In this document: positions 17,801 to 63,705 of the stretch, piece after piece
How positions within the stretch are numbered: the first letter of the stretch is position 1
How the letters are laid out: each line of letters begins with the position of its first letter
NCBI GenBank assembly: GCA_964489145.1
Contig: CAZAXL010000004.1
Coordinates: 8,176-72,175 of the forward strand
From: an uncultured Gammaproteobacteria bacterium
GTDB taxonomy: Bacteria; Patescibacteriota; Microgenomatia; UBA8517
Length of the DNA stretch: 64,000 nucleotides
Direction: 5' to 3'
The notes under the pieces: generated by a model
The model's database searches: none
What the model was told of the DNA's origin: nothing
The model's input: the letters and a program-made list of their open reading frames with translations, nothing else
Position numbers and translations under genes: made by a program

Positions 17801-17816
17801 CTAAAGAAATTGTGAA

Positions 17817-40180: not shown

Positions 40181-41293
40181 ATGAAATTGCAGGTACTTCA
40201 GGAAAATCTGGAAAAAGCAGTCAGTATAACGACAAGATTTGCGAGCACTAAAGCACAGCTTCCTATTTTAGGAAACATTCTTTTATCTGCAAAAAAAAGC
40301 AAAATATTCCTATCTTCAACAAATCTGGAGATATCAGCATCAGTGCAAATTGGGGCAAAAGTTGAGAAAGAAGGAGAAATAAGCATTCCGGCAAAAGTCA
40401 TTACAGACCTTATTTCTAATTTACCCAAAGAAACAATAAACCTTGAATCTGAGAAAGAACAATTAAAAGTTTCAACAACAGGATTTTCATCCACTATTTT
40501 AGGAATTGATCCTACGGATTTTCCGAAGGTTCCCAACACACTTAACGATAAAAACACCATTGTTTTTTCAAAAAAAGAGATATCTGATTCTTTGAATAAG
40601 GTTATTTTTGCCACTTCGGTTGACGAAACAAGGCCAATCTTGACGGGAGTTCTTTTTATATTGGATAAAAATTCCTTATCTTTAGTCGCTACGGATGGAT
40701 TTAGGCTTTCCAAAAAAGTTATTCCTCTTAAAGACTCTAAAAGTGACAAAAAAACTGTAGTTATTCCAAAAGGTGTTTTAGGGGAAATTAATAGGGGAAT
40801 TTTCGAAGCTGATGAAATTCTTTTTGATTTGGAAGAAAATGAAAAACAAATTATTTTTGGAATAGAAGATACTGTTTTAACATCCAGACTATTGGAAGGA
40901 GAGTATCCTGATTTTGAAAAGATAATTCCCAAAGAGTCTAATATCAAAATCACACTGGATAAAGAAGAATTTTTGAGAGCGGTGAAGCTTGCCTCTATTT
41001 TTGCCAGAGAATCCGCGAATGTTGTAAAAATTAAAATTTTGAAAGATTTGATAAAAGTTTCGGCTGAAAGTAGCGCGGCGGGAAGTCAGGAAACTAAGGT
41101 TGATGCAAAAATTGACAAGGGAAGTTCTGAGGAATTTGAAATTGCTTTTAACTACAGGTATATAGAAGATTTTCTACATTCGGTGGTAGGGGAGGAAATA
41201 AAAATGGAGTTTTTGAATTCGACCTCTGCAGGAGTTTTTAGAGATACGAATGATTCAAGTTATCTTCATTTGATAATGCCGGTAAAAATATAA
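40181..41293 (+). CDS. dnaN: DNA polymerase III beta sliding clamp
   Basis: MKLQVLQENLEKAVSI start, three-domain ~370 aa, position after dnaA. Confidence 0.85.
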   Translation: MKLQVLQENLEKAVSITTRFASTKAQLPILGNILLSAKKSKIFLSSTNLEISASVQIGAKVEKEGEISIPAKVITDLISNLPKETINLESEKEQLKVSTTGFSSTILGIDPTDFPKVPNTLNDKNTIVFSKKEISDSLNKVIFATSVDETRPILTGVLFILDKNSLSLVATDGFRLSKKVIPLKDSKSDKKTVVIPKGVLGEINRGIFEADEILFDLEENEKQIIFGIEDTVLTSRLLEGEYPDFEKIIPKESNIKITLDKEEFLRAVKLASIFARESANVVKIKILKDLIKVSAESSAAGSQETKVDAKIDKGSSEEFEIAFNYRYIEDFLHSVVGEEIKMEFLNSTSAGVFRDTNDSSYLHLIMPVKI

Positions 41294-46546: not shown

Positions 46547-47226
46547 TTGTTTTCAAGTATTACCTCGGGCTCTTTTTTGACGGCTGGCTTTTCCGGATTG
46601 TAAATTGAATAAAACAAGTTTATAAGATCGGGGGTTGTAAGTTGTTTGAATTTAATTCCAAGTCGTCCTGCCTGACGGACAAGATGGTCGCGTCTTGGGT
46701 AAAGAGCAATTTTTGCTTTTTTAATAACATATGATTTAGTAAATGGAAGGGGTCCGGATAATTTCGTAACCGCGGCTATAGATTTTGCTACCCCAAGCTC
46801 AAGTGGAGACAGATAAAGAACGACAAAAAATCTTTTTCCTAAAACATTTTTCTTTTTAACGGATTCGGTTATAAAGTTTTTATAATCCTGCATGAGATTT
46901 GCAAGAAGGGGCTGAGTAATCTTTTTTGATTGCTCATCCAGAAAGTTTAGATATGATGAAATATCTTTCTTTTGGGTTAAAACAACAATTTGTACGGAGA
47001 AAGTAAGTGAATTTACCATGGCTGCATAAGCAGCAATTACGGCTTCCTGTTCTTTTTCCGAAAGGAGCCCAAAGTTTAGGGAACTTGACTCCATGATAAG
47101 TGCTGCTCCGCCATCTTTATAAATAACGATGTCATTGGTAATGTCGGCAACAGGTACAAAATCTTGAGTGGTTGAAGTTAAAGGTTTGTCGGGAATATTT
47201 ATAAATGGAATTTTAGGTATATTCAT
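46543..47226 (-). CDS. Probable VirB4 N-terminal domain encoded as a separate ORF (split VirB4)
   Basis: 227 aa, soluble; DIVIYKDGGAALIMESSSLNFGLLSEKEQE resembles VirB4/TrbE N-domain; ATGA overlaps with flanking genes on both sides. Confidence 0.4.
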   Translation of the reverse strand: MNIPKIPFINIPDKPLTSTTQDFVPVADITNDIVIYKDGGAALIMESSSLNFGLLSEKEQEAVIAAYAAMVNSLTFSVQIVVLTQKKDISSYLNFLDEQSKKITQPLLANLMQDYKNFITESVKKKNVLGKRFFVVLYLSPLELGVAKSIAAVTKLSGPLPFTKSYVIKKAKIALYPRRDHLVRQAGRLGIKFKQLTTPDLINLFYSIYNPEKPAVKKEPEVILENK

Positions 47227-48290
47227 TGGTTTGTTAGTATGTTTGTCGGTTGTTGCATTGGGGTTGCTTGAGTCGTCACAAGTGACCTTCCTTCTACCAG
47301 AATCGGGGGAATAATTTCTCCTTTGGCCTCAAAATTAACGGGCATGAATTGATATCCGTCCTTTTCACTGATAATGCCATATTGGCCGTTATCAAGAGCA
47401 GTGACCGCCATAAAGTGTCCGAGCTTGTTGCTTCTAAGGGCTCTAATGGGCCTGCCGTATTCGTCTCTAATCTCAATAATTGCTCCTTCAATAATTCTTC
47501 TTGCCTCGTCAACAACCTGACCCACCACTACGTTGGGATATGTAGGCGGGTTTGGGGGAGTGGCGTCAATTGAAAAAATGGCTTCTCTGGTAGAAACTAT
47601 TTCTTCCCCAGCAATTGTAGGATTAACATGCTGAGTCTGGACTTGCACTGTTTGAGAAACGGGTTGAACCCTTTCCTCGACGACAAGGTGGGTGGTCTGC
47701 ATGGGGGTTATTTTGACAGATGTGCTTACGGGAATCTCCAGTTTTTTGGGAGCAGGGGGGGGTGTTGGGACGGTGGGGGTTTGGGCTGTGGCCACAGGAG
47801 TTACAGGACCTTTAATGCCGGCAAATATACCGGCAAGGGCAGCCAGGAAACCCTGTTCCGCACCCTCCAATTTAGCAAGAGGTCCGGCCATTTGTTTAGC
47901 GCTTTCCAAATAGTTTTTGAGAGCAGCGTCTTGGTTTTGATTTCCCTGTTGGGGCGGAATATTGCTGACCGCAGTTTCATCTTGAAAAAACCTGGGAACC
48001 TCTTTTGTTTTTTTCCAGTTGAAAATTGTTGGAGAATAGATTGTTTTAAAAAACGATAAAATCCACTGTTCCAGGGGACGCTCCTCAAGAGGGACAAAAG
48101 CCATGGCGGCGCCCAAAATTACAGAGACAATTGCAAACGGCCATTTGATTATTCCAATTAAAGGAGATGAATAAAAAATTAAACCAACCAAAAACCCCCC
48201 CGCAAGCTGAAAGAATTGCTTGAGAGTCATATCTCCCACCAACCGGAATTGGTAAGAAGATATATTTTGCGGAATTGGATGTTGTTCCAT
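47223..48290 (-). CDS. PrgI/VirB3-like membrane protein with ~250-aa C-terminal extension (first gene of operon)
   Basis: DMTLKQFFQLAGGFLVGLIFY...two TM resembles PrgI-family PLTLRQF..L..G block; directly upstream of VirB4 as in monoderm T4SS. Confidence 0.5.
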   Translation of the reverse strand: MEQHPIPQNISSYQFRLVGDMTLKQFFQLAGGFLVGLIFYSSPLIGIIKWPFAIVSVILGAAMAFVPLEERPLEQWILSFFKTIYSPTIFNWKKTKEVPRFFQDETAVSNIPPQQGNQNQDAALKNYLESAKQMAGPLAKLEGAEQGFLAALAGIFAGIKGPVTPVATAQTPTVPTPPPAPKKLEIPVSTSVKITPMQTTHLVVEERVQPVSQTVQVQTQHVNPTIAGEEIVSTREAIFSIDATPPNPPTYPNVVVGQVVDEARRIIEGAIIEIRDEYGRPIRALRSNKLGHFMAVTALDNGQYGIISEKDGYQFMPVNFEAKGEIIPPILVEGRSLVTTQATPMQQPTNILTNQ

Positions 48291-48431: not shown

Positions 48432-51152
48432 TTGTTATATAATTTACATATGCCCGACGGTATGTCACCTGAAAACAAACCACAATCAAGTATTGAATTT
48501 ATGAAATCCCTCGGAGGACCGACCAGACTTCCTGCTAATGAAATAACAGGCCAGGCTGCGAAAGATTTTCCTCAACCTGAATCAAGAGCTAATGTTCCGG
48601 ATATAAGGATGCAGGTGGGCAATGGTGATGAAGAAAGTAATGCAGCAGCGGAGCGTGCAAAGCTGGAATATTTAATACGAATGGGTGAGCTTATGGGTTC
48701 AGAAGAGGGTGGGGGTTATTTAAATAAGTTTATAGACAACATTCGGGGTTTATCCAAAAAAGTAGAAGACCCCACAACTCACGAGTCAAGAAATAAAACC
48801 GAGGAAGAGAAAGATAAAGTTAGGGAGAATATTGCAGAGGCTTACGTTCATCTGTGCCATGCAGAGCTTGATGAAATAAACACAATAAATAAATATCTTG
48901 AGGATTTGAAAAACCCATTCCCTTACGATTCAAGGTGGACAATCCAGACTTTTGAAAGGATCGAAGAAAGAATAAATGGAGTACTTAGGGAAAAGAAAGG
49001 TAGGGCAGTTGATGGTGAAGGTAGGGCGCTACTCCATATGTACAAAAGGGATCTGAAGTGGGCGCTAGCCACAGCAAAAATAAACGAAGCAATGGGGCCA
49101 GCCTACGAGCTTTATTTTGACGGTGAGTTAGAAATGCAGCGCCTAAGAACTCCGCATAGCGAAGTTAAAGCATCAGATTTCATGAGTGCTTTTCAGGGAC
49201 ACGAAACCGGTTTTGAGAAGGATGTACTTGATGAAGAAAATAAATTAATACAGAAAACACTTTTGAAGATTCCACCCGAATATCTTAAAGATGTGGACGG
49301 AGAAAACACTTTTAAAGAAAAGACTTTGGTGGAAAAGGCAATAGAATATCAAGATTTATATAGCACACTGTCGCTCGATGCTTTCGCTTCGGCCCAAAAA
49401 AATCTTGAATATGGGTTCGGTGCTGGAGACGATAAAGAAGCTGGAAATCATTATAAAAACATAGATTATGTTACCTTTCGCTTAATGAATGAACTTTTTA
49501 GCTCTTCTAAGGCAGTTGAGGATGGAAAAGTTGTGGAAGCAGAGGACGAGAATTTAGTTTATGTTAATCGAAAAGGAGAGGGATTTAATGTTAAAGCTCA
49601 TCCGATTTTGAACCCTCACAATATGCAGAGGGATGACGATCTTGCCTACCGTCAATATTATTCGAGGATGCATGAGCTTATGCTTCATTGGAATGATGCT
49701 TACAGTAGTCAAATTGATGAAGTTAGGAATGTTTCAGACTTGTCAAAAGACGATATAGACGAAAAAATTAGAGCAATTGCCGACGGAATTGTAGCTAAAG
49801 CGGATAAAAGAGCTAAATCACAAAGAACTTTAGACGAAGGCCATCCGTATGACAGGTTAATAGATACTGTAATTAATTCTCAAATTAATCTGGAACGCGG
49901 AATTCTTGCAAGTGGAGAGTATGGCTGGGGTTGGTCTTATAATGAGAAGACTGATAAAAGAGGAAATGTTGTGGTAGTAAGGAAATCTGAACTTGGAAGC
50001 ATATATGATAACCACGATCTCACAACTATGGTTTATTGGGCTAGGCACATTATTGACTACGATAACATGGGGGAGACACGGGGAGCTCTTCTGTTTCCTA
50101 CAATTGGCAGTTACAGAGAAAGGTGGATGAGCGAACCTCCATATTGGAAGCCGGAATTGACTGAGTTTGCCCAAAATGATAACACTCTTCTTCGAAGATT
50201 AGGGTTGGAAGGCAGTTATGGGATTCTTTCCCAGAAAAATTTCCTGGAGGATAAAGTTGGTAGAAAAACGTACTTTAAGGGGGCGAAAGGGTGGCAAGAG
50301 CAAAAATATGGCAAGTTTGATGAGTCTTGTGCAAAGTATATCAAAGAGAACGCCTGGGCATTTGTTACTTGTTGGTTAAACGAACCTGGTAAAGGGAGCG
50401 ATGAATACAATCTTGTCTTCCCAGTCTTTTTACCGACAATGATTGAAGATGTTAATTTTTGGAGATCTGTTAGCCTCCAGGGACCGTCTGAAAAAATTAA
50501 TACTTACCCTCTTGCAGATCCTAAAAAGGGTGATCCAAAAAGTCTTTGGAATGAAAGGATGGAAGGGAAAAAGTTGTCAGAAATGCGGTGGGAATATATG
50601 TCCAAGTATAAATACAATTGGACAATGGTGAACCTGGATCAGATGGAGCGCTGGTTTGGGCCAATGGTAACGCCACACGATTTCAATAAGTCAACCGCGC
50701 CGGAATTTGAAAAACACTACAACATGCCAGGTGGTAAAAGTGAAAAAGAGGCAGGGAAAAGAGGAAGATTGGGAGCAAGGGGCTCACGTTGGGTGGATGG
50801 AGTTATTAGAGCAACGGTTTTGGCCCAAAACAAGGTGCTATCTGCGGTCCAGTTAAGTGGAGTTATGGGTGTGGATGTTTCTGCGCTTACAAATGTAAAT
50901 GAGAGAAATTCTTCCTTGAATAAGGAATTGGATACATGGAGATTAAATTGGATAGCCCCTTGGATAAACACAATGCTAGATATGCCCTCCGATGTGCGCA
51001 AGGTTAAAAATTATGGAGGAACAGCTGCTCAATCACTTCTGGTGTCTTACCTTCAAGTTCGAAGAATTATAGCCTCTGCTGTTGCCCACAGTAATGGTCA
51101 AAAGCTGGACGTTAACAAATCTATAGACCAAATAGAAGAAGGATTTACTTAA
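48432..51152 (+). CDS. Large soluble hypothetical protein (906 aa), plus-strand gene inside the minus-strand T4SS-like locus
   Basis: No TM, no recognisable motifs; TATAAT lies inside the first codons, so true start may be MPDGMSPEN at 48450. Confidence 0.4.
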   Translation: MLYNLHMPDGMSPENKPQSSIEFMKSLGGPTRLPANEITGQAAKDFPQPESRANVPDIRMQVGNGDEESNAAAERAKLEYLIRMGELMGSEEGGGYLNKFIDNIRGLSKKVEDPTTHESRNKTEEEKDKVRENIAEAYVHLCHAELDEINTINKYLEDLKNPFPYDSRWTIQTFERIEERINGVLREKKGRAVDGEGRALLHMYKRDLKWALATAKINEAMGPAYELYFDGELEMQRLRTPHSEVKASDFMSAFQGHETGFEKDVLDEENKLIQKTLLKIPPEYLKDVDGENTFKEKTLVEKAIEYQDLYSTLSLDAFASAQKNLEYGFGAGDDKEAGNHYKNIDYVTFRLMNELFSSSKAVEDGKVVEAEDENLVYVNRKGEGFNVKAHPILNPHNMQRDDDLAYRQYYSRMHELMLHWNDAYSSQIDEVRNVSDLSKDDIDEKIRAIADGIVAKADKRAKSQRTLDEGHPYDRLIDTVINSQINLERGILASGEYGWGWSYNEKTDKRGNVVVVRKSELGSIYDNHDLTTMVYWARHIIDYDNMGETRGALLFPTIGSYRERWMSEPPYWKPELTEFAQNDNTLLRRLGLEGSYGILSQKNFLEDKVGRKTYFKGAKGWQEQKYGKFDESCAKYIKENAWAFVTCWLNEPGKGSDEYNLVFPVFLPTMIEDVNFWRSVSLQGPSEKINTYPLADPKKGDPKSLWNERMEGKKLSEMRWEYMSKYKYNWTMVNLDQMERWFGPMVTPHDFNKSTAPEFEKHYNMPGGKSEKEAGKRGRLGARGSRWVDGVIRATVLAQNKVLSAVQLSGVMGVDVSALTNVNERNSSLNKELDTWRLNWIAPWINTMLDMPSDVRKVKNYGGTAAQSLLVSYLQVRRIIASAVAHSNGQKLDVNKSIDQIEEGFT

Positions 51153-51161
51153 ATTGTATTT

Positions 51162-52889
51162 CTAACGCTCCCCGGGCCCTTTCTGGCCGCCGGTACCTGG
51201 TTGTCCGCCTTGTTTTTGCATACTCTTCAAGATATCATTCAACACTTTCATTGCTCCTCGTCCTCCACCCCTGCTTTCAATTGCTTGCTGCAACCTTCCC
51301 GCTGCATATGTCGTTCCAGCTTCTGCTCCATATTTCTGTACACCGGAGGCAACTCCACTAAACGGTCCCAGAGCCTCACCAATTCCTGTTCCTGCAAATT
51401 CTTTGCCTGCCATAAATGATTCGATAGCCTCAGATATTTTTGGTATCATCATGATTATACCAACACTCATCAACAAAAATGCAATTGCCGTAGCAGAAGC
51501 GGGGTTTCCTAGCATTGGAGGTCCCCAAGCATTGCAAAAATCTAGAGTATTAGCAGGGTCAAAAAATTCAATTCCTGTAAATTTACTTATCAACCCCAAC
51601 TCCAATCTTAGTACGGGTTTAAGTATGCTCATGAGACCGTTGTTGCAAATAGCGCCGTATACAGATGTGGCCATGGAGTATCCCAGTAGGAAAAAAGATA
51701 TATAAATGAATATTCCGGTAAGGGGAAATACTAGTAGTTTTGAAAACAATTTCTTGAGCCAGCTACTAAAACCCGACTGTGGAAAGAGTGTGCCCATGGT
51801 GATCTGGAGTGGGGCAATTATTATAAGGCCATACACTGCCGCTAGGTTTTTAAAAAGCATAAATATGACTCTGACAGTGCTTACAATAAGTATAAGTAGC
51901 AAGATTATTGTGAAGATAATGAGAAGCAGGCTAAAAAGTGTTGAAGAAATATGGAAACCTGAAACCGATGCTAATAAAGCAACGACCGCAGCAACAAAAA
52001 ATAATATTATATATGCGATAAAATAAAAAAATATTGCGATACCACCATCTTGTAGAAGTGGGATAGACCCGTTGATGAAAGCAAAAATAATTTTTCCCTC
52101 TGCCACCTTCAAAAAATTTGTTGGAATAAAGGACGACATCATAGCAGAAAATACACCCATAATGACATATATTAGGTCAATCATGAATCCAGCAATCGCG
52201 AATGAAAATGTTACTAAAATAAGCGAAATAACTATTTTAGGTAAAGCAGATTGAACACTAATTACTAGTTGAGGGGATAACTTAACCCTCAACATGATCA
52301 TAAAAGCGAAAACAATTGTTACTATTACGAACAGGAAGAAGGAGAAATTTCTGGTTAGTCCCCAAAGTGGTCTAATTACTGTTAATACCGTATAACCATA
52401 TCCGGTGGTTTGGGCGTGAACTTCCGTAACCGGGTCCAGTTTTCTTATTATGTTTTTGACATAACTAATGCCAGAAATTGGTCTATCAGCAAAAATCTGG
52501 GAAGCAATAGATGGTTGATGTTGTGTGTTTTCGGTTAAACCAAGGTCGGCTGTAGAATCATTTATAAAATTAGTGAGACCATCAACACAAGCATCTAGTT
52601 GAATATTTGACGCAACGGCCCCCATAAAACAACTGGCAACATCAGTATTGCCTCCGGTTACCAAGTTAATAAACATAGAAGGAAGGCTGTAGATAATCCA
52701 TTGAACCTGAGCTGCGGTATAACGCTCTCCAAAAATTTCATTTTGATTTGAATTGTCGTATACCTTTAGGTACCATTCAGGGAGAGATTGGTTGTACCAA
52801 GTTGTTTGAGCCTTGGCCTGAGAGAATGGGCCGAGGGAAATAAGAAAAGTAGTGCCGATTAGGATGGATATGAGCAGTTTTTTAAACAT
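51162..52889 (-). CDS. Polytopic membrane protein, VirB6/TrbL-like (inferred)
   Basis: Signal peptide, ~150-aa extracytoplasmic N-domain, >=6 TM, Gly/Pro/Gln-rich C-terminal tail (GGQPGTGGQKGPGER) as in TrbL; position between surface protein and VirB3/4. Confidence 0.4.
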   Translation of the reverse strand: MFKKLLISILIGTTFLISLGPFSQAKAQTTWYNQSLPEWYLKVYDNSNQNEIFGERYTAAQVQWIIYSLPSMFINLVTGGNTDVASCFMGAVASNIQLDACVDGLTNFINDSTADLGLTENTQHQPSIASQIFADRPISGISYVKNIIRKLDPVTEVHAQTTGYGYTVLTVIRPLWGLTRNFSFFLFVIVTIVFAFMIMLRVKLSPQLVISVQSALPKIVISLILVTFSFAIAGFMIDLIYVIMGVFSAMMSSFIPTNFLKVAEGKIIFAFINGSIPLLQDGGIAIFFYFIAYIILFFVAAVVALLASVSGFHISSTLFSLLLIIFTIILLLILIVSTVRVIFMLFKNLAAVYGLIIIAPLQITMGTLFPQSGFSSWLKKLFSKLLVFPLTGIFIYISFFLLGYSMATSVYGAICNNGLMSILKPVLRLELGLISKFTGIEFFDPANTLDFCNAWGPPMLGNPASATAIAFLLMSVGIIMMIPKISEAIESFMAGKEFAGTGIGEALGPFSGVASGVQKYGAEAGTTYAAGRLQQAIESRGGGRGAMKVLNDILKSMQKQGGQPGTGGQKGPGER

Positions 52890-52922: not shown

Positions 52923-55313
52923 TTAATTTGGGTAATTAGGTAGTGCTATTCCCGGTGCAATGACGGAATAAATAAAGTTCAAATCGTTCGTATAACTTGA
53001 TATTTTATCTTTTTCGTTTTGATTTAGTGGGGAGCAGTGTCCAAACCAAAACATTGAAATAAAGGTACTCATATCCTTTTTACCACACTTGGCAGCGTAT
53101 GAACTTGGTAAATTTAAAAAGAAGTCTAGTTGTTTACTAAAATTATTAGTTGGTACACTTTGATTACCGTGGATGCCAAAATCTTCGACAGGATAGTTTA
53201 CAGCCTCGTAATTACTTGCATCGGATTCATGTATCCAGATGGCAAGAGTAAATATTGGATCTATATTTTTGTTTTTTGACCTCTGAATAACATCATTATT
53301 ACATTCTTTGAAGTAAGGTCTGCCGGGACCCGTCGCATACCAGATCTTGGTTATATTTTCCGCCTCGGTTTTGTTTAAACCATTCACAGCAATTTCCGGA
53401 ATGGTTTGATTGCAATTTATTTCACCGCTACTGCTCGAATCTTCATCAGAATTCGGTGCAAAAGAAATTGCGTCACCAAGCCCTTTGGGTCTGAGAGCGG
53501 TTTGGATACCATTTAAGAAATATTCGGAAATTCCTCCCAGATGGGGGAGTTTTAAATCGGTGTTTGATTGAGAGACATTCGTGCCTGAATAATTAATATT
53601 AGTAGATCCCGGCATATCCATTATCTGCCCGACGCTTCCAGCCGTGTTGGTTTTTGGGAAAATTCTCTTGAAAACCGCCATTGGACCCGCCACAAGGCGC
53701 GACCAAATATCGTCGGCGAGAGGAATTTTTGAGGTAGTTGAGAGGTTGATATAAACATCTTTTTTACACTCCTGGGTAGAAGTGGGCGCGGAGGTCGGGT
53801 TAGCATCAGGATAGAGACAATCTGCTCGGCATTCGTTGGGCGCGCCTCCGAAATAAGTACATCTTTCATAGCAACCGGTGGGGATAGGGGCGTCAAAAGT
53901 ACAAGAAAAATTGGCTGTATAGGAAAGATCCCCCGTCAGCTGTGTGGCAAAAAGATCATCTCCCTTATTTGAACGCACCTCAACGGTATTACAGGAAGTT
54001 TCCGATGCAACATTTGTCGGACTCCCGACTTTATCCTCCCCTTTTGGAGTATAGGTATCTTGCAGGAGAGAACTAAGTTGGTCAGATTCTTCCATGTGGG
54101 AGAAAAAAAGAGTAGCGGGATTTTGATTTGAGAATGCAATATTTTTTACGATTACATTTGAGTCTGACGTGCCTTGCGCGGATGATACTTGGTCGATGGA
54201 AATATTTCCTTCGACATCCTCAGTTGAAGAGAGGGGAATGTAGGAAAAGAGATCCGAATATTCATTCGAAATAAGAATATTATTCAAGCACAAAAGTATT
54301 TTAGGAAAAGGAGTAATAATACAAGAGTTTCCCTGCCATTCCTTATACGCTTTTTGATATGTTAAAGAGTCAAAGGGCTTGCCGCTTGGATCAACTCCCC
54401 AGGAAAGCGGAGGGACTCGATACGGCCAAGCTTTATTCTGGTCTAATGCCTGTGTGATAATATCTCCCGGAATAGATGGAAATGTATTAAGAAAAAGATC
54501 GAGAAGTGAAATGCCGGCGTTTTGTAGGGTATTTACAATCGAAAGATTTCCATCCCAGTTTGTTAATCTCCATTTCTCTTCACCCGGACAATCGGTGGCA
54601 ACTGTTTGACCGACGCCCAGGTTCTCCAAACCCCATTTAAGGAAAGATGGAATTAGGCTGGAGTTGATTTCTTTTTTTGTGCAAACCACAACCTGGTCGT
54701 GTCTTGTGACTTTTGCGTTTTTTATTTGCGTAAACCTATTTGCGTTTTGGATTTCCAACGGAAGAAGCTTGGCTAAGGGGCCAGAAAAATTTACTAATGA
54801 ATCATCGTCACTCTTATCAGGATATTCTTTTTTGTTTGTTACTCCTCCAAGATACCAACTTACGTAATCATTCATTTTGTCGGCGTCTGAAAGCGCGTCT
54901 TCGGTGTTGCCCATAAAAGGCAGGTCCGCACCGCTTAAATCAATCGTTACTTTGTGGCTGGGGACAGACACGTTGTATGTGCAATAAACTTTACTTCCTT
55001 TTGTGGTACAATTTCCGCCTCCTCCTGTGTATGTTTTTTCGATGGTTTCCTTCAAGGTGAGATTGTTTCCGCAAAAAGTTGCCTCACTGGCCGTTTGAGA
55101 AGTGCATTGGGTATTTGCTTGGTATGGACGAAGAGAGTTAAATTCAGTATCGGAAACATTTCCACAGGAGATATTTGTGTTAGCAGGAACTTGGGCATTT
55201 ACAGTTCCAATTTCTAATTTCAAATTTCTAATTTCTAATAAAATTACAATTAATAAAATTACAAGAACTGAAAGTTTAAAATTCGAGATTTTAGATTTGA
55301 GATTGAGAATCAT
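52923..55313 (-). CDS. Large Cys-rich secreted/surface protein (796 aa), possible C-terminal lysozyme-like domain
   Basis: N-terminal TM/signal anchor, many Cys pairs, C-terminal FTLAIWIHESDASNYEAV resembles transglycosylase ES motif (weak). Confidence 0.35.
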   Translation of the reverse strand: MILNLKSKISNFKLSVLVILLIVILLEIRNLKLEIGTVNAQVPANTNISCGNVSDTEFNSLRPYQANTQCTSQTASEATFCGNNLTLKETIEKTYTGGGGNCTTKGSKVYCTYNVSVPSHKVTIDLSGADLPFMGNTEDALSDADKMNDYVSWYLGGVTNKKEYPDKSDDDSLVNFSGPLAKLLPLEIQNANRFTQIKNAKVTRHDQVVVCTKKEINSSLIPSFLKWGLENLGVGQTVATDCPGEEKWRLTNWDGNLSIVNTLQNAGISLLDLFLNTFPSIPGDIITQALDQNKAWPYRVPPLSWGVDPSGKPFDSLTYQKAYKEWQGNSCIITPFPKILLCLNNILISNEYSDLFSYIPLSSTEDVEGNISIDQVSSAQGTSDSNVIVKNIAFSNQNPATLFFSHMEESDQLSSLLQDTYTPKGEDKVGSPTNVASETSCNTVEVRSNKGDDLFATQLTGDLSYTANFSCTFDAPIPTGCYERCTYFGGAPNECRADCLYPDANPTSAPTSTQECKKDVYINLSTTSKIPLADDIWSRLVAGPMAVFKRIFPKTNTAGSVGQIMDMPGSTNINYSGTNVSQSNTDLKLPHLGGISEYFLNGIQTALRPKGLGDAISFAPNSDEDSSSSGEINCNQTIPEIAVNGLNKTEAENITKIWYATGPGRPYFKECNNDVIQRSKNKNIDPIFTLAIWIHESDASNYEAVNYPVEDFGIHGNQSVPTNNFSKQLDFFLNLPSSYAAKCGKKDMSTFISMFWFGHCSPLNQNEKDKISSYTNDLNFIYSVIAPGIALPNYPN

Positions 55314-55350: not shown

Positions 55351-55632
55351 TTAGGGGAGGACTATATTGAAGTTTGTTACATCAACCCCTGTGATATTTG
55401 TGATCAACAAAAGAATTAGATAGGAAAGAAGAATAATGATAAGTCCAGCAATTGCGGAAGTTAGGGTTTTTTTGGCGCTCTCGACAGCTTTTGGGTCACC
55501 ACCGGAAGTGATAAATTTGAACCCCCCAACTACAAGAAGAACAAAGAGAACAATTCCGGCAAAACCTAAAGCATAGCCTACAACCCTTTGGAACAGAACC
55601 CCGAAATCCTCAATTGTTGCAACATCTTCCAT
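55351..55632 (-). CDS. T4SS pilin-like small two-TM protein, paralog 8 (VirB2/TrbC-like)
   Basis: TM1 - SGGDPKAVESAKKTLTSAIAGLIIIL - TM2 shared family motif. Confidence 0.5.
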   Translation of the reverse strand: MEDVATIEDFGVLFQRVVGYALGFAGIVLFVLLVVGGFKFITSGGDPKAVESAKKTLTSAIAGLIIILLSYLILLLITNITGVDVTNFNIVLP

Positions 55633-55677
55633 AACAACACCATTTTAGAGTAAACAGCGAAGTCGAGCAAGAGAGAC

Positions 55678-56025
55678 TTACTGAGGAATGGTAGGAATGG
55701 TCAGGACGTTTAACACATCAAGCCCAAAAAAGACCTTGATGAGAGCCAGAATTGCCCAGGCAGCAAATACGATAACAAGTCCAACTAAGGCCGCTGTTAT
55801 CTGATTTCTTGCAGCTTCTGTTTGAGCCTTGTCTCCACCAGAGGCGATCCAGCGAATTCCACCTATTACTAAAATGAAGAAGAATATGATTGCAGCTATA
55901 ACAACTGAAAGTCTTATTAGACCGGAAACGATTCCAGAAACCGTAAGATTACCCAACGTAGAAAACTGCCCAACTGGCTGAAGATCTATAGGTGCGTTAT
56001 CGGCGACGGCGAGTAATTTTTGCAT
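55678..56025 (-). CDS. T4SS pilin-like small two-TM protein, paralog 7
   Basis: ASGGDKAQTEAARNQITAALVGLVIVF motif between two hydrophobic helices. Confidence 0.5.
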   Translation of the reverse strand: MQKLLAVADNAPIDLQPVGQFSTLGNLTVSGIVSGLIRLSVVIAAIIFFFILVIGGIRWIASGGDKAQTEAARNQITAALVGLVIVFAAWAILALIKVFFGLDVLNVLTIPTIPQ

Positions 56026-56040
56026 ATCTTATTGTGTATA

Positions 56041-56403
56041 TTATCGAATTATTAGATTACCTATGTCAAGAGTCAATATTGAAACACCAATAAAGCCTTC
56101 TATAAGTTTGACGATAGCAAACACAGAAAACATAATAACGAGTCCGATAATAGCGCTCGTGATTTTTCCTCTTGCGTTCTCAAGAGATTGTTTATCTCCA
56201 CCAGAGGATATCCATTGAATCGCTCCAATAATTAACATAAAGAAAAAAATTACAACCCCAACAACGAAGGCTAAAGTTATAAGGTTGGGGATGAAGGTCT
56301 GAAAAAAACTTAAACCGCTTGCGTTATCACCCAAGCCCCCCAATACTGGATTTTTAATTTCAGAAGCTCCCCCTGTTGCTCCCGCTAGTAAATTATTTGA
56401 CAT
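56041..56403 (-). CDS. T4SS pilin-like small two-TM protein, paralog 6
   Basis: SSGGDKQSLENARGKITSAIIGLVIMF motif. Confidence 0.5.
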   Translation of the reverse strand: MSNNLLAGATGGASEIKNPVLGGLGDNASGLSFFQTFIPNLITLAFVVGVVIFFFMLIIGAIQWISSGGDKQSLENARGKITSAIIGLVIMFSVFAIVKLIEGFIGVSILTLDIGNLIIR

Positions 56404-56411
56404 TTTTATGT

Positions 56412-56801
56412 TTATGGATTGACAGTGTTGCCTGTAATAACACTAAAGAGTGATGGAAAATTTAAAATATCGGGAATACCAAGGAGTTCTCCTACCAGTT
56501 TTATGGCAAATATTGAAACAATAACGATGATAAGCCCAATTATTCCGTTTACAATCCTTTTTCTTGCAGATTCGACTGCGGCCTTATCCCCGCCAGAAGA
56601 CATGTAACTAATTGCACCGGTAATAAATAGGAAAACCGACCATATGATTGCTATAACAGTTATTATTCCTATAAACGAAGAAAGGAAGTTTGTAAAGATA
56701 ATATCTGCATTACCGGCCTCGCTTCCTTGGAGTCCAAGTTTGCCAAACCCTTTAAATCCGCCATCTGGAGCTATTTTAATTTCTGCCAATAAATTTTTCA
56801 T
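56412..56801 (-). CDS. T4SS pilin-like small two-TM protein, paralog 5
   Basis: SSGGDKAAVESARKRIVNGIIGLIIVI motif. Confidence 0.5.
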   Translation of the reverse strand: MKNLLAEIKIAPDGGFKGFGKLGLQGSEAGNADIIFTNFLSSFIGIITVIAIIWSVFLFITGAISYMSSGGDKAAVESARKRIVNGIIGLIIVIVSIFAIKLVGELLGIPDILNFPSLFSVITGNTVNP

Positions 56802-57151
56802 TAAAGTGTTGGAATTACCGGATTAAGAATAAAATCCCATTTGCCAAAAATCAATTGACCAAAGAGTGCTGCGAGAACAAAGGCTCCTGCTGAAAATGCA
56901 AGTCCTAATGCTGTTTGCCAAATCTTTGCCCAAGCTCCTGCAACTTTTTTGGGGTCATCCCCTGCGGACATAAATGCGTATCCGGCCAAAACAAAATTAA
57001 ATAAAGCATATATTGAGGCTCCTATTATCAAAATCCAAATAACCTTTTGTATCAATGCTCCGATAGCCACACCCGGTTCCCCACTATACTTTTCCAAACC
57101 CGATGGGGGAGGAATGACTCCAAAAGGATTTGCTGCTAATAATTTTGTCAT
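56801..57151 (-). CDS. T4SS pilin-like small two-TM protein, paralog 4 (most diverged)
   Basis: SAGDDPKKVAGAWAKIWQTALGLAF variant motif; start overlaps stop of the upstream paralog. Confidence 0.45.
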   Translation of the reverse strand: MTKLLAANPFGVIPPPSGLEKYSGEPGVAIGALIQKVIWILIIGASIYALFNFVLAGYAFMSAGDDPKKVAGAWAKIWQTALGLAFSAGAFVLAALFGQLIFGKWDFILNPVIPTL

Positions 57152-57152
57152 T

Positions 57153-57461
57153 TTAGAAAATAAGATTTTGTACCCCCAAAAGAGAACTAACCAATTTTAC
57201 TATCCAATAGGATGTAAATACAATAACAAAGCCGATTACGGCCGAAGTAATAGTTTTTTTAGCTTGCTCGGCTTTCTGGGGATCGCTTTGTCCTGCGCTT
57301 CCTATCATGCCGATCCCTCCCAGGATAAAAAAGAAAAGGAGAATGAGACCCGCAAGAACAAAAGCAATATTTAAGAAAAGTGAAACCACAGAACCTATCC
57401 CTGTAATGTTTTTGAAAGCACTTAAACCAGATTTTCCTAGAAAGGCATCACCTATATTCAT
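57153..57461 (-). CDS. T4SS pilin-like small two-TM protein, paralog 3
   Basis: SAGQSDPQKAEQAKKTITSAVIGFVIVF motif. Confidence 0.5.
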   Translation of the reverse strand: MNIGDAFLGKSGLSAFKNITGIGSVVSLFLNIAFVLAGLILLFFFILGGIGMIGSAGQSDPQKAEQAKKTITSAVIGFVIVFTSYWIVKLVSSLLGVQNLIF

Positions 57462-57526
57462 ACTACAATTTTATTGTAAAGCCATTTTATTATAATAGAC
57501 CTTCTGAAGCAAGTCAGTGTAGATTG

Positions 57527-57859
57527 TTATTTTCCACCGAAGATTTGACTAAAAAAAGTACCTTCAAGACCAAGAACCTGCCCAAAAATTTGGACGATTG
57601 TGAAGGCAAAAAAGACAATAATAAAACCAATCACGGCATTCGTGATTTTTGTTTGAGCAGATTGCATAGCTTTGGGGTCTCCTCTTGAGGTCATCATTTG
57701 CAGGCCGCCGATCACTAGATAAATCAGAAGTGCGACTCCGGCTGCACCAAATATATATGGAAGTATCATACTAATGACATCCCCAACTTTTGCTTCTCCG
57801 CCAAATTTAAAATTTGGAAATGCGCGTGTTTGTATATCGTCAAAATTTTGTGCAAGCAT
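57527..57859 (-). CDS. T4SS pilin-like small two-TM protein, paralog 2
   Basis: SRGDPKAMQSAQTKITNAVIGFIIVF motif; start moved to MLAQNF (the track's longer ORF overlaps paralog 1). Confidence 0.5.
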   Translation of the reverse strand: MLAQNFDDIQTRAFPNFKFGGEAKVGDVISMILPYIFGAAGVALLIYLVIGGLQMMTSRGDPKAMQSAQTKITNAVIGFIIVFFAFTIVQIFGQVLGLEGTFFSQIFGGK

Positions 57860-57860
57860 G

Positions 57861-58268
57861 TTATTTTCCAAAACCAAATTTATCCAATCCCAGTATATCA
57901 ACTCCGATAAACTTAAGTATGAATATCGAAAAAATCAAAAGAATAAGCCCTGCAATGGCCGAAGTTAAAAGTTCCTGGCCGGCTTTCAATCTTTCGGGGT
58001 TCCCTGAGGCTGTCATGGTCATAAACCCGGCATAAAGCATCAGGAGAAACGCAATTCCTCCCCCGATGCCAACTCCCCAATTGAGGACGAAAGATATGAA
58101 TTCGGACTGATTAAATACCGGAATACATCCGATTGCCGTATTAAGCTCTGTTCCTAAAAAATCACAATATTTAGAGTCCATAGACTGAGCCCTAATGGGT
58201 GTTGGGGCCAAAAATATGTTGACAAACAGAAACATTAGGGGAAATACACTTCCCAAGAATCTTTTCAT
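57861..58268 (-). CDS. T4SS pilin-like protein, paralog 1 with classical signal peptide and Cys pair
   Basis: Signal peptide MKRFLGSVFPLMFLFVNIFLAPTPIRAQS, CDFLGTELNTAIGC, then TM-ASGNPERLKAGQELLTSAIAGLILLIF-TM. Confidence 0.5.
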   Translation of the reverse strand: MKRFLGSVFPLMFLFVNIFLAPTPIRAQSMDSKYCDFLGTELNTAIGCIPVFNQSEFISFVLNWGVGIGGGIAFLLMLYAGFMTMTASGNPERLKAGQELLTSAIAGLILLIFSIFILKFIGVDILGLDKFGFGK

Positions 58269-58329: not shown

Positions 58330-60075
58330 GTGGGTGGCCAATTAAAAATGAAGAATTTAAAATTTAAAATTAAACAAAGAGCTTTCAAGAGGCTGGTTTT
58401 GGTTGCAGTCCTGGTTTTTGTTTTTTCATTCTTCACCTTTACTTTTGTAAAGGCTCAGGATTGCGGAACGGACCTTGATTGTCAAATATCTCAGATTCAA
58501 AAGGAAATTGACGCACTTTCTCCGGCTCAGGAAAAGAATAAACAGGATTTGACAGCGCTTAATAAACAAATTGCCGACCTGAACTTTAAGATTTCAAAAT
58601 TAACATCGCAACTCAAATCTCTTGAAATACAGATCTCCGGCAGAGAAAAAGATTTAGTCTACACAAAAGCAATATTTGATGAAAAGGCAAAAGGGCACTA
58701 TACATTTTTGAGGCTTTACGACCCAATTACTCCGTTTCTTTTCTCCGACAGTGCGTCGCAAGCTTTTCAGGAAATTGTAATGCGGCAAAAAGCGGCTGAT
58801 TCTGACAGAAAGGTGATGGAGGAGTATGCAACTGATTTATCTTCTTTAAAAACAGACAAAGAAACTTTAGAAAAAAGCAAAGTAAGTCTTTCCTCTCTCC
58901 AATCACAAGTTGCTGAAAAACAAAAGTTTTTGGCAGGAGAAGTTGCAAAAGTGGACAGCTACCTTTCGACCCTCTCAGCGAAACAGAACGAACTCGCTGC
59001 CCTCAAGGCAGGCGGATTCCAGACCTCAATCGGTGATACCCCTCCAACTCTTGAGCCATGTAGTGGTCCTCCCGGATCATCCGCGTTTTGCAATCCTGGT
59101 TTCTCTCCCGCCTTTGCTGCATTTTCTTTTGGTGCACCCCATAGAACTGGCATGAGTCAGTATGGCGCTTATGGAAGAAGCAAATCTGGGCAATCCGCGG
59201 AAACGATTCTTTCGGCTTATTATCAAGGTGCTTCGTTAAATAAGAGTTACCCCACATCTACAAACATATGTGTTGGATCGAGTAAATCGAGTTGTACAAA
59301 TGTGGATCTGGAAACCTATGTAAAAAGAATATATGAGGTTCCAAATAGTTGGGGAGACAACAATGGTATGGAGGCGTTGAAAGCCCAGGCGGTGGCAGCC
59401 CGTTCGTATGCTCTTTATCAGATGAAAGGTGTTGGATATATCTGCTCTACCGAATCCTGTCAGGTATATAAGCCGTCAAATAAGGGTGGAAATTGGGAGA
59501 CAGCAGTAAATGCTACTCCTGGCTGGGTTCTAGAAAAAGGAGGGAGTCCGGCGGCTGCTTACTTCTCGGCGAGTACGGGTGGTTACACAATTTCTCAGTG
59601 GGGCTGGAGTGGAATTAAAGATGCTTCAGGAAATTGGCCAGATACGGCTTATGAAAAAATCGGGGGATCGCCCTGGTTTTATAAAGGCTGGTATAAAAGT
59701 CGCGGTGGGGCAACTTGTGGACGAAATAATCCCTGGCTAACCTCTGAGGAGATGGCGGATATCCTGAACGCATGGAGGGTTTTACATGATGGAGCCGGTG
59801 GAGATAAATCAAGAATAGTCCCTGTGTCCTGTTGGGGAGGTAATCCTTATTCGATGCAAGAACTAAGAGATATTGGGGGAATAACTAGTGTGTCAAATGT
59901 GTCAGTTGTTTATTCGAATGAGGGAAAAACACTATCCGCTTCTTTCTCGACAAATAAAGGTACGATTACGGTACAGGGATGGCAATTGTCAGACTCGAAA
60001 GAAGGAGCATTCAATCTTAGAGCTCCTGGATATATCGGTTTAAAAAGTTCACTTTTCAACATAGAGAAGTTTTAA
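58330..60075 (+). CDS. SpoIID/LytB-domain protein with N-terminal TM and coiled-coil (peptidoglycan remodelling)
   Basis: MEALKAQAVAARSYALYQ = SpoIID (PF08486) signature; N-terminal TM and ~180-aa coiled-coil. Confidence 0.65.
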   Translation: MGGQLKMKNLKFKIKQRAFKRLVLVAVLVFVFSFFTFTFVKAQDCGTDLDCQISQIQKEIDALSPAQEKNKQDLTALNKQIADLNFKISKLTSQLKSLEIQISGREKDLVYTKAIFDEKAKGHYTFLRLYDPITPFLFSDSASQAFQEIVMRQKAADSDRKVMEEYATDLSSLKTDKETLEKSKVSLSSLQSQVAEKQKFLAGEVAKVDSYLSTLSAKQNELAALKAGGFQTSIGDTPPTLEPCSGPPGSSAFCNPGFSPAFAAFSFGAPHRTGMSQYGAYGRSKSGQSAETILSAYYQGASLNKSYPTSTNICVGSSKSSCTNVDLETYVKRIYEVPNSWGDNNGMEALKAQAVAARSYALYQMKGVGYICSTESCQVYKPSNKGGNWETAVNATPGWVLEKGGSPAAAYFSASTGGYTISQWGWSGIKDASGNWPDTAYEKIGGSPWFYKGWYKSRGGATCGRNNPWLTSEEMADILNAWRVLHDGAGGDKSRIVPVSCWGGNPYSMQELRDIGGITSVSNVSVVYSNEGKTLSASFSTNKGTITVQGWQLSDSKEGAFNLRAPGYIGLKSSLFNIEKF

Positions 60076-62901: not shown

Positions 62902-63336
62902 GTGAAAATCTTCAACAAAAGAGCGAAATTTGAATATGAGCTTACCGGTGAAGGGGTTGAGGCAGGGATTTCCCTTTTGGGAGCCGAGGCTAAATCTGTG
63001 CGTGAAGGAAGAGTCGATATTTCCCAGTCAGCGGTTAGGATTTTGAATGATGAAATGTATTTGATTAATGCAAATATTCCTGCTGCCGGGTTGACCAAAC
63101 ATGACTCGACCCGCATGAGAAAGCTTTTGCTTCACAGGGCCGAAATACTCTCACTTATTACCAAAATGAAGCAGAAAAGGTTGCAAATTGTGCCTCTTAG
63201 GGTATACAATAAAGGTCGCTTAATTAAGCTTTACCTTGAGCTTGGGAAGGGTAAGCGCAAGTTCGAAAAGAAGGAAGCTCTTAAGCGTCACGACATAAAC
63301 CGAGACATAGAAAAGGAACTCAAGGGTTCGATTTAA
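62902..63336 (+). CDS. smpB: SsrA-binding protein SmpB
   Basis: NKRAKFEYELTGEGVEAGISLLGAEAKSVREGRVDIS canonical SmpB N-terminus; adjacent to tmRNA. Confidence 0.85.
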   Translation: MKIFNKRAKFEYELTGEGVEAGISLLGAEAKSVREGRVDISQSAVRILNDEMYLINANIPAAGLTKHDSTRMRKLLLHRAEILSLITKMKQKRLQIVPLRVYNKGRLIKLYLELGKGKRKFEKKEALKRHDINRDIEKELKGSI

Positions 63337-63699: not shown

Positions 63700-63705
63700 C
63701 AAAGC

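Follow-up and report, generated by a model that had tools for sequence, protein, structure and literature searches.

Eight conserved classes of VirB2-like pilins are encoded in tandem in a chromosomal T4SS-like cluster of Woesebacteria

Why should one bacterium encode eight different pilin-like proteins side by side, and are these proteins alternatives to one another or parts of a single structure? We address this question for a stretch of 64,000 nucleotides (the window) from Candidatus Woesebacteria (Microgenomatia, Patescibacteria/CPR), ultra-small organisms from groundwater metagenomes. Much of the bacterial diversity that has not been cultured belongs to the Patescibacteria, which apparently live attached to other microbes. 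A previous sequence-only reading had described the locus as a tandem array of eight diverged pilin-like paralogues, comparable in size and helix number to VirB2/TrbC pilins, suggesting either a mixed or major/minor pilus composition or the functional or antigenic diversification of a surface filament.

The open reading frame listing bears out the array. Eight consecutive ORFs on the minus strand (93, 115, 120, 129, 116, 102, 124 and 135 aa in order of ascending coordinates) fill positions 55351-58268 exactly, and are numbered here p1 to p8 in the direction of transcription (Table 1). For p2, an alternative TTG start at 57901 would give 124 aa and an overlap with the preceding gene. The shorter gene is likelier, because conservation among orthologues begins at the ATG at 57859 (MLAQN/MLTQN).

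Hydropathy analysis recovered the proposed plan of a variable N-region, a first transmembrane helix (TM1), a motif and a second helix (TM2). In all eight proteins two hydrophobic helices enclose a short charged loop, as in the core of the T4SS_pilin family PF18895 (~70 aa, two hydrophobic helices and a short polar loop). The motif SGGDxxxxExA(K/R), put forward as common to the array, is strict in p5-p8 but loosened in p1-p4 (SRGDP, SAGQSDP, SAGDDP, ASGNP), and two glycines are the only invariant columns in an alignment of the eight paralogues. A signal peptide and a Cys pair had been assigned to the first transcribed gene alone, and this proved correct: p1 possesses an extra N-terminal hydrophobic signal sequence (...IRA|QS) and the only cysteines (two) among the eight, while p2-p8 begin with polar regions of 10-35 aa.

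Table 1. Features of the array and its surroundings, with bit scores against PF18895 (T4SS_pilin; gathering cut-off 26.6 bits).
Feature	Position	Strand	PF18895 (bits)	Description
dnaA	38503..39864			near the cluster
dnaN	40181..41293			near the cluster
X949	41874..44723	-		949 aa; three central TM helices; downstream of virB4
VirB4-like ATPase	44726..46546	-		Pfam P-loop_TraG 96.3 bits; AAA_10, DUF87
TrsD/TraD-like (cf. VirB4 N-terminal part)	46543..47226	-		NF041427 E 3.8e-8, below cut-off; PF26593 TraC-like in precomputed matches
PrgI/VirB3-like membrane protein	47223..48290	-		355 aa; C-terminal extension; PF12666 29.7 bits (cut-off 27)
X906	48432..51152	+		large protein, opposite strand within cluster; highly variable between strains
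X575	51162..52889	-		polytopic membrane protein; signal peptide and ~8 TM helices; candidate VirB6/DotA-like fold
X796	52923..55313	-		signal anchor; 20 Cys
p8	55351..55632	-	39.5	93 aa; last and shortest pilin
p7	55678..56025	-	33.3	115 aa; pilin
p6	56041..56403	-	37.1	120 aa; pilin
p5	56412..56801	-	20.9	129 aa; pilin; N-region motif P.GGFKGFG.LGL
p4	56801..57151	-		116 aa; divergent pilin class; SAGDDPKKVAGAWAKIWQT loop; NPFG / FILNP.IPT tails
p3	57153..57461	-	43.6	102 aa; pilin; loop with 2-residue insertion (SAGQSDP)
p2	57527..57859	-	42.3	110 aa from ATG start; pilin
p1	57861..58268	-	32.0	135 aa; signal peptide, conserved Cys pair (C..INTAIGCIPV), pilin hairpin; first transcribed
SpoIID-domain protein	58330..60075	+		signal anchor, N-terminal coiled coil; Pfam SpoIID 56 bits

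The VirB2-like assignment was supported by Pfam search, in which six of the eight proteins passed the PF18895 cut-off at E values of 3e-11 to 1e-7. The TrbC/VirB2 family (PF04956) was matched by p2 alone, at 23.6 bits (E 5.9e-5) against a cut-off of 27.9, and the NCBIfam model of a Mycoplasma ICE pilin-like protein (NF045849) by p3 and p8 at 29-30 bits (28.9 for p3; E ~1e-7) against a cut-off of 40. p5 fell short of the PF18895 cut-off and p4 of the window returned no Pfam match; nine of 30 p4 orthologues matched PF18895. On profile-profile comparison, p4 and p5 were nonetheless shown to be homologous to the remaining array pilins, with hhalign probabilities of 95-98% for p4 against p2, p3 and p5-p8, and of 96-99.8% for p5 against the other classes. 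Over all class-versus-class pairs the probability was 95-99.9% in 26 of 28. Paralogues share 22-43% pairwise identity, and the similarity among the eight sequences is well beyond chance. Because HMMs usually miss p4, the array would seem to be broken by a 'non-pilin gene' at that position.

An AF2 model of p8 is a helical hairpin (helices 3-42 and 47-81; pLDDT 75.9). The best Foldseek match was 8dfu, a conjugation pilin of Aeropyrum pernix (E=1.6; TM 0.56/0.61), in a type of comparison that cannot discriminate helical hairpins, and a sequence-profile search of PDB sequences returned no relative. VirB2, TrbC and TraA carry a long N-terminal signal peptide that is removed by signal peptidase. 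The array proteins do not share this long cleavable leader, an N-terminal hydrophobic signal being present in p1 only; the missing signal peptide in seven of eight, unlike VirB2, TrbC and TraA, counts against a pilus.

The array sits in a chromosomal, oriC-proximal T4SS-like cluster comprising TrsD, VirB4, a PrgI/VirB3-like protein and a VirB6/DotA-like candidate recognised in this work (X575). The expected linkage to VirB4 is present: VirB4, TrsD and PrgI are encoded 7-11 kb downstream of the array, and their homologues occur in 40 of the 55 related species loci that have at least 9 kb of downstream sequence. The related loci are labelled as Candidatus Woesebacteria, Microgenomates or Patescibacteria. 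The TrsD-like neighbour also matches a Mycoplasma ICE VirB4 model weakly. Scanned ORFs of the window yielded no relaxase, coupling protein or VirD4 domain. X796, for which no family match was obtained, directly follows the array in 57 of 79 species loci and may form part of the cell wall or of an extracellular stalk or tip. X575 has a putative resemblance to DotA, which in Legionella is the protochannel subunit. The SpoIID gene is divergently transcribed from p1 and keeps its place beside the array in 66 of 79 loci; its product may be a peptidoglycan-remodelling partner.

These results bear on whether the eight might be unrelated small membrane proteins (holins, or toxin or bacteriocin immunity proteins) lying near T4SS genes by accident. 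Such families include many two-TM proteins of ~100 aa, and various membrane families in Pfam were matched weakly, below threshold. However, PF18895 was the sole Pfam family above its cut-off for array proteins, PHROGs gave no annotated match (holin or other phage family) for any of the eight and Pfam no holin family, and synteny with VirB4, TrsD, PrgI and the VirB6-like candidate is kept over dozens of species. By family match and conserved T4SS synteny, this explanation is effectively refuted.

We then compared the array across species. Exactly eight pilin genes are present in 54 of 79 species-representative loci; 53 of these 54 passed a strict test of p1 to p8 order, and the listing shows all 54 so ordered. 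In four metagenomic relatives orthology is strictly positional, with orthologues 43-97% identical compared with the 22-43% of paralogues. These comparisons show that p1-p8 are distinct orthologous classes whose order is the same in the window and in 53 species loci, a result that is new here. The dN/dS comparison that the sequence-only reading had recommended returned ratios of 0.09-0.22 where dS was estimable, showing at the codon level that the array pilins are under purifying selection.

Identity by region is 24-39% in the N-region and 29-51% in the C-tail, against 49-85% in TM1, loop and TM2; the predicted exposed ends vary most. The pilin cores are conserved to a degree similar to SpoIID and PrgI and above X796 and X575. 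Loop and TM2 are best conserved in p7 (mean pairwise identity 85% and 84%), p4 averages 64% identity to the window copy across 53 species and p5 is the fastest-evolving class (orthologues 43-57% identical). p1 of the window is the minimal form of its class, across which the Cys-rich ectodomain measures between 103 and 394 aa and contains up to 34 Cys. The tails, which had been thought to differ completely, do differ between paralogues, but class-specific motifs are conserved in each across the 54 arrays compared.

Could the eight paralogues nevertheless stand in for one another as the major subunit, with one or a few in use at any time, whereby the exposed surface of a homopolymeric filament is varied? 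This reading has been proposed in a published survey (PMC12102498), and the low identity between paralogues, together with predicted exposed tails that differ most, is in keeping with it. The retention of every class in position in 53 species and the window, with class-specific tail motifs, and the low dN/dS ratios argue against it. DNA repeats that might serve gene conversion or cassette switching are also wanting: the array is nearly free of them, a single 59-nt stretch (75%) between p6 and p7 excepted, so that the duplications must be ancient. The intergenic gaps contain neither a promoter-like excess nor a terminator-like site and thus do not indicate independent expression. Furthermore, the T4SS pilin genes of Southlakia ML1 are reported to be essential for epibiotic growth by Tn-seq (PMC10633639).

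Fused proteins provide a further argument against interchangeable subunits. When 87,736 family representatives were searched, multi-hairpin single chains ranked highest, with up to 17 hairpins fused. The confidently classed fusions, from other organisms, keep array order (p1-p2, p4-p5 and p6-p7), and such joining of neighbouring classes in one chain forces their co-expression.

Variation between close strains, on the other hand, favours interchangeable subunits, since the p1-p7 alleles of near-identical strains differ sharply. Between the window and one relative (L020), dS is 0.2-0.4 in flanking genes and p8 and ranges from 0.6 to saturated in SpoIID and p1-p7. p8 (dS 0.23; 97% amino acid identity) goes with the genomic backbone, unlike p1-p7. 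Between L017 and L024, dS is up to 0.015 for X796, X575 and PrgI and 0.73 for p7, and L025 is a gene-by-gene mosaic of three haplotypes. Such mosaic haplotypes are drawn from metagenome assemblies, in which some (e.g. L003) could be chimeric contigs; two haplotypes are identical in separately deposited records (L020=L052 and L022=L074). Across the distant species set, class incongruence is noisy and does not decay with distance. Between close strains, p1-p7 with SpoIID have the look of divergent alleles acquired from elsewhere, as does X575 independently of them, and diversification does appear to act at the level of the whole allele.

Weighing these points, we regard interchangeable subunits as improbable and favour obligate mixed assembly, because the classes are fixed in order, under purifying selection and fused between neighbours. 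Thus, of the two suggestions first made for the locus, the better fit is a mixed or major/minor composition, not antigenic diversification among copies that can replace one another.

The array, we conclude, probably encodes eight ancient, non-interchangeable VirB2-like pilin classes of a chromosomal T4SS-like machine that build a heteromeric pilus or short stalk. Each pilin would enter the membrane folded as a hairpin of two helices, its termini facing outward and its charged SGGD(P/K)...A(K/R) loop facing inward. Extraction of the hairpins and their assembly into one heteromeric pilus or short stalk would fall to the VirB4/TrsD ATPase, acting with the PrgI/VirB3-like protein and X575, and the structure would cross the cell wall toward the host cell. 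p1 is the likeliest tip or initiator/adhesin subunit, since it alone among the eight has a signal peptide and two Cys able to form a disulfide, and since its counterparts in relatives carry a large insert that is variable and rich in Cys. Recombination would replace whole p1-p7 alleles (with SpoIID) and separately X575, whereby exposed ends may be retuned while the class set stays fixed. More tentatively, we raise the possibility of an obligately heteromeric eight-subunit pilus or stalk on a DotA/VirB6-like platform, with neighbours side by side and an exposed face retuned in populations by recombinational exchange of a cassette of p1-p7 plus SpoIID, in Woesebacteria and, probably, in other Microgenomatia. 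Side-by-side packing of neighbouring subunits would account for the poly-hairpin chains and for the fact that p1-p2, p4-p5 and p6-p7 recur as fusions.

The hairpins might instead form a short hetero-oligomeric ring or tube in the envelope with X575 and X796, host contact being made through type IV pili. Monoderm T4SSs are generally without pili (PMC12102498), and a literature search found no report of a pilus of this T4SS in any Patescibacterium. The putative likeness of X575 to a protochannel subunit and the lack of a cleavable leader in seven of eight proteins are also consistent with a channel, and chains of up to 17 hairpins are more readily imagined closing into a tube or ring than serving as the units of a dynamic filament. 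Homology to pilin families (T4SS_pilin and, weakly, TrbC/VirB2) speaks against it, and the exposed tails and large p1 ectodomains look like surface-display modules. We consider a channel doubtful; it differs from the heteromeric pilus mainly in filament length, and the latter already admits a short stalk.

If the set of eight classes is fixed, the prediction is a mixed assembly in which each class has its role, and not antigenic switching. The candidate DotA/VirB6-like protein X575 would fill a component reported as scarce in Microgenomatia. Host specificity may be determined by p1 and by the p1-p7 cassette, which can be swapped; both are concrete candidates. The Patescibacteria T4SS is the first reported to be essential for its carrier bacterium (PMC12857230, PMC11665869). 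If true, an eight-component conjugative-type filament in a monoderm, essential to a host-dependent lifestyle, would constitute a new architecture in the T4SS superfamily.

Among known systems, type IV pili and type II secretion pseudopili, with their major and minor pilins, offer a functional analogy: small, co-conserved, non-interchangeable subunits, whose genes lie together, form one filament with specialised tip or initiator members. Their fold (one N-terminal helix with a prepilin peptidase site) and machinery (PilB-type ATPases) are of another kind, and no homology is claimed. The pilin-like conjugal transfer protein of the Mycoplasma ICE Mbov_0395 family (NF045849) is likewise a two-TM protein associated with a monoderm T4SS, but is encoded by a single-copy gene on a mobile element rather than by an eight-gene chromosomal array. 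VirB2, TrbC and TraA (PF04956) are also small two-helix hairpins with a short charged loop, encoded with VirB3, VirB4 and VirB6-type genes. To our knowledge, the conjugative pili characterised structurally consist of a single pilin with VirB5 at the tip; the array differs in its eight co-conserved classes, as against one major pilin and a VirB5 tip protein, and in its monoderm host.

The virB2 clusters of Anaplasmataceae and Bartonella, as described in the survey (PMC12102498), resemble the array as tandem divergent copies beside a T4SS for which surface variation has been proposed. These clusters encode canonical PF04956 pilins of diderm intracellular pathogens, thought to be alternatives; the array classes, anciently fixed, positionally orthologous and sometimes fused, point instead to joint use.

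The closest likeness is to the arrays of other Patescibacteria. Southlakia epibionticum ML1 has an array of six VirB2-like pilin genes (Wang 2023, PMC10633639), and the survey counted 441 arrays of 2-11 genes across the phylum (Quinonero-Coronel 2025, PMC12102498), especially abundant in Microgenomatia, the class of the window genome. Phylum, Pfam family and tandem divergent copies (mean identity 25% in the survey, 22-43% here) agree, as do the features by which such arrays are known: two or more tandem genes (here eight) with VirB4, TrsD and PrgI nearby, dnaA/dnaN proximity and, among the ORFs scanned, no relaxase or coupling protein. The array as such adds nothing to the published record, in which arrays of this kind were reported for the phylum in 2023-2025, and the diversification hypothesis of the sequence-only reading is already published for such arrays (PMC10633639, PMC12102498). 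What is new is the set of eight fixed classes, with dN/dS of 0.09-0.22, the fusions of neighbours and the allele pattern of p1-p7 and SpoIID. Whereas published treatments describe variable number and content and antigenic or host-range versatility, the Woesebacteria array comprises eight fixed, ordered classes.

ORF listing confirmed the eight consecutive pilin-like genes that had been read from the sequence; they lie on the minus strand and encode proteins of 93 to 135 aa, and we number them p1 to p8 in transcription order. Intergenic spacing runs from -1 to 65 nt. The ATG was taken as the start of p2, rather than an upstream TTG that would give a 124 aa product overlapping p1, because it matches the point where orthologue conservation starts. 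Hydropathy analysis revealed two long hydrophobic helices flanking a short charged loop in all eight proteins. Pairwise identity between the paralogues is 22 to 43%, with only two glycine columns invariant across the alignment. The conserved core motif proposed in the sequence-only reading is strict in p5 to p8 and relaxed in p1 to p4, while the N-terminal signal sequence and pair of cysteines were indeed found in p1 only among the eight. The N-termini of p4 to p7 additionally carry a short M-x-x-(L/F)-L-A motif (MTKLLA, MKNLLA, MSNNLLA and MQKLLA); p2 begins MLAQ. The motif is present in 30 to 55% of p4 to p7 orthologues, is absent where p7 sits fused behind p6, and may be a processing signal or help the protein insert into the membrane.

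Features of the pilin array and its surroundings (window coordinates)
Feature	Coordinates	Strand	Remarks
Pilin array (p1-p8)	55351-58268	-	eight consecutive ORFs
p1	57861-58268	-	first transcribed
p2	57527-57859	-	ATG at 57859; 110 aa
p4-p7	55678-57151	-	N-terminal M-x-x-(L/F)-L-A
p8	55351-55632	-	last transcribed; 796-aa gene follows after 37 nt
X796	52923-55313	-	signal anchor, 20 Cys; no family match
X906	48432-51152	+	strand opposite to cluster; no family match
X949	41874-44723	-	three central TM helices; no family match
SpoIID-domain protein	58330-60075	+	signal anchor, 10 Cys, N-terminal coiled coil
smpB	62902-63336	+	
tmRNA	63340-63702	+	directly 3' of smpB; Rfam 157 bits; tag peptide ANSNRSASANYALAYA
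tRNA-Cys	17729-17801		
RNase H / RVT_3 domain protein	34363-34785	-	stand-alone, 140 aa; among housekeeping genes near origin region

The array is most simply read as a single operon. Separate expression of its members from internal promoters and terminators was unsupported: promoter-like sites in a consensus scan were not above chance (17 versus 14.2 ± 3.8), and no coding-strand terminator-like site lies in the gaps between pilin genes. Terminator-like sites were about twofold more frequent than the shuffle mean (12 versus 5.8 ± 3.5); all of those on the minus strand fall inside coding sequence.

The only Pfam family scoring above its curated cut-off was PF18895 (T4SS_pilin; 26.6 bits), which was passed by six of the eight proteins at 32 to 44 bits. 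The p5 protein scored below this cut-off (20.9 bits), p4 had no Pfam match, and p2 additionally matched TrbC/VirB2 (PF04956) below the family cut-off. Alignments of 54 sequences per class were compared pairwise with hhalign, giving probabilities of 95 to 99.9% for 26 of 28 class pairs; the p4 class reached 95 to 98% with p2, p3 and p5 to p8. Nine of 30 p4 orthologues matched PF18895 and no second family recurred among them. Below threshold, p3 and p8 matched the NCBIfam 'pilin-like conjugal transfer protein' of Mycoplasma ICEs. At E≤1e-3 the pilin family comprises 87,736 cluster representatives. A holin or phage origin was ruled out, since no such match was found in PHROGs (where the pilins had no annotated match of any kind) or Pfam. 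A tblastn search of p3 against 72,556 plasmids returned no match. The AlphaFold2 model of p8 is a helical hairpin (pLDDT 76) whose best Foldseek match in the PDB, the Aeropyrum pernix conjugation pilin, was not significant (E=1.6); given this value, and the resemblance of the model to many helical hairpins, the fold search is uninformative. A sequence-profile search of the PDB found no solved relative.

The exact protein sequences are encoded on upwards of 20 contigs from groundwater metagenomes; sites carrying this genome include those sampled as SAMN03203005 and SAMN03842445. When p6 and p7 orthologues were used to query one genome from each species, 79 loci were obtained, a sample that is thereby biased to genomes with a p6- or p7-like gene. 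These are titled Candidatus Woesebacteria, Microgenomates, Shapirobacteria or 'Patescibacteria group'. Some third-party (TPA) MAG records bear the title 'uncultured Gammaproteobacteria', which was taken to be a mislabel because it clashes with all other labels and with gene content. Exactly eight pilin genes were present in 54 of the 79 loci, and class HMMs listed all 54 arrays from p1 to p8 on one strand, with 53 passing a strict order filter. Loci with fewer genes were mostly truncated contigs or six-gene Shapirobacteria-type arrays (p3 to p8; for example L085, L087 and L097), the latter having SpoIID downstream rather than upstream. Larger loci carry additional p1 or p7 copies: arrays of 9 to 11 genes (L075, L079, L080, L082, L100, L102 and L105) hold two or three p1 copies of 270 to 490 aa and sometimes additional p7 copies. 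Synteny is conserved in the order SpoIID, p1 to p8, X796, X575, then PrgI, TrsD and VirB4. A lack of VirB4 in related loci, which would have refuted the sequence-only reading, was not borne out: a PrgI, TrsD or VirB4 homologue was reached in 40 of the 55 loci with enough downstream sequence.

In each of the four metagenomic relatives compared, the closest counterpart of every window paralogue occupies the corresponding place in the array. Recent tandem duplication or gene conversion was ruled out, as DNA repeats are almost absent and orthologues are much closer than paralogues. Local identity to the window, averaged over 53 species, ranged from 53% (p5) to 69% (p7), comparable to SpoIID and PrgI (58% each), above X796 (44%) and X575 (41%) and below VirB4 (78%); the large flanking proteins were compared by pairwise alignment. 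Tails carry conserved, class-specific motifs, namely NPFG..P and FILNP.IPT in p4, P.GGFKGFGPLGL in p5, I.NP.LG.L and ILTLDIG in p6 and C.G....INTAIGCIPV in p1. Within classes, the N-region (24 to 39% identity) and C-tail (29 to 51%), both predicted to be exposed, are less conserved than TM1, loop and TM2 (49 to 85%). The signal peptide and cysteine pair are kept throughout the p1 class, with an insert varying from none (in the window) to approximately 250 residues and up to 32 extra cysteines.

Between the window and the near strain L020, which is identical to the GTDB representative UBA8517, SmpB, X630, X205, p8, PrgI, TrsD and VirB4 showed dS of 0.20 to 0.39 and 95 to 98% amino acid identity. 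SpoIID and p1 to p7, by comparison, showed dS from 0.59 to saturated and identities of 55 to 81%, with dN/dS of 0.09 to 0.22 where dS was estimable; X575 was only 42% identical. High dS with low dN/dS indicates that the divergent SpoIID and p1 to p7 alleles are probably old and imported rather than the product of positive selection in place. In a second pair of loci, L017 and L024, dS was at most 0.015 for X796, X575, X906 and PrgI, 0.12 for p8 and 0.73 for p7. A further locus, L025, is a mosaic, lying nearest to L022 in p2 and p3 (89 to 91%), to L020 in p4 to p6 (90 to 95%) and to the window in p8 (88%) and X796 (94%). These alleles come from metagenome assemblies, in which chimeric contigs are a caveat; two haplotypes were found unchanged in separately deposited records. 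Over 54 distant arrays, correlations between classes are modest (0.28 to 0.61) and do not decay with array distance, so that phylogenetic incongruence is too noisy there to serve as evidence of recombination; the case for recombination is drawn from close pairs alone. In two independent strain pairs, the boundary between divergent and backbone-like sequence falls between p7 and p8 (55632-55678 in the window), p8 and X796 staying with the backbone while p1 to p7 are exchanged. The JGI contig Ga0209728_1000522 (L003) matches the L020 haplotype at 98% over positions 1-1651 (p6 to p8 and the start of X796) and the window at 99% elsewhere. Natural recombination or a chimera made during assembly could each account for this mosaic, and the contig was excluded from the evidence on account of the latter possibility.

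The best 150 of the 87,736 family matches (P0121 to P0270), from a library of 1.84 billion proteins, were all chains with several pilin hairpins, up to 17 in one protein by tool count. Where class HMMs were confident, fused neighbours keep the array order (p1-p2, n=5; p6-p7, n at least 6; p4-p5, n=1); P0123, P0171 and P0213 are among the fusion proteins. The linkers look like natural sequence, and the p6 C-tail continues directly into the p7 N-region. Such fusions would entail co-expression at 1:1 and identical membrane orientation. A further implication is that, in members lacking a signal peptide, the N-region faces the same side as the C-tail before it, a side that the signal peptide of p1 sets in p1-p2 fusions. 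Among multi-hairpin relatives outside the window, P0121 carries a signal peptide followed by six almost identical repeats, P0122 reaches 1775 aa, and P0149 and P0212 possess large Cys-rich C-terminal ectodomains.

The window is ordinary chromosome, containing uvrD, metG, groEL, valS, rplY, yidC, rnpA, dnaA, dnaN, smpB and tmRNA. On the strand of the array, its 3' neighbours are X796, X575, a PrgI/VirB3-like protein, a TrsD-like protein, a VirB4-like ATPase and X949, followed by dnaN and dnaA. The scanned ORFs of the window included neither a relaxase nor a coupling protein. X575, with a signal peptide and approximately eight TM helices, is assigned with moderate confidence as a divergent VirB6/DotA-type subunit, a component reported to be scarce in Microgenomatia (PMC12102498). 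X796, X949, X906 and X187 had no family match in Pfam (including hits up to E=1), NCBIfam or PDB sequences. The SpoIID-domain gene is transcribed away from p1 in 66 of the 79 species loci, and its product is a possible peptidoglycan-remodelling partner analogous to VirB1.

Family matches and linkage to T4SS genes support the pilin interpretation. Polymerisation, filament length and the roles of individual classes are matters that we infer; such a pilus was termed hypothetical in a 2025 review, and our literature search found no structural report on one. Single 'poly-pilin' chains of 2 to 17 tandem hairpins found no mention in the literature examined. In the texts of Wang et al. (PMC10633639) and Quinonero-Coronel et al. 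2025 (PMC12102498) and the 2025 review we likewise did not find the eight-class positional orthology, p4 as a pilin class missed by HMMs, the neighbour fusions, the p1 to p7 allele cassette or X575 as DotA/VirB6-like. The pilin array as described is already known from the first two studies. Wang et al. (PMC10633639) found the T4SS pilin genes of Southlakia to be essential, in a cluster without a recognisable coupling protein or relaxase. Quinonero-Coronel et al. 2025 (PMC12102498) searched 3,035 genomes with PF18895 and allied profiles, their list including the Woesebacteria genome L035, a canonical array carrier here, and suggest antigenic or host-range versatility; our analysis speaks more for eight specialised subunits that form one mixed assembly than for variants that can replace one another.
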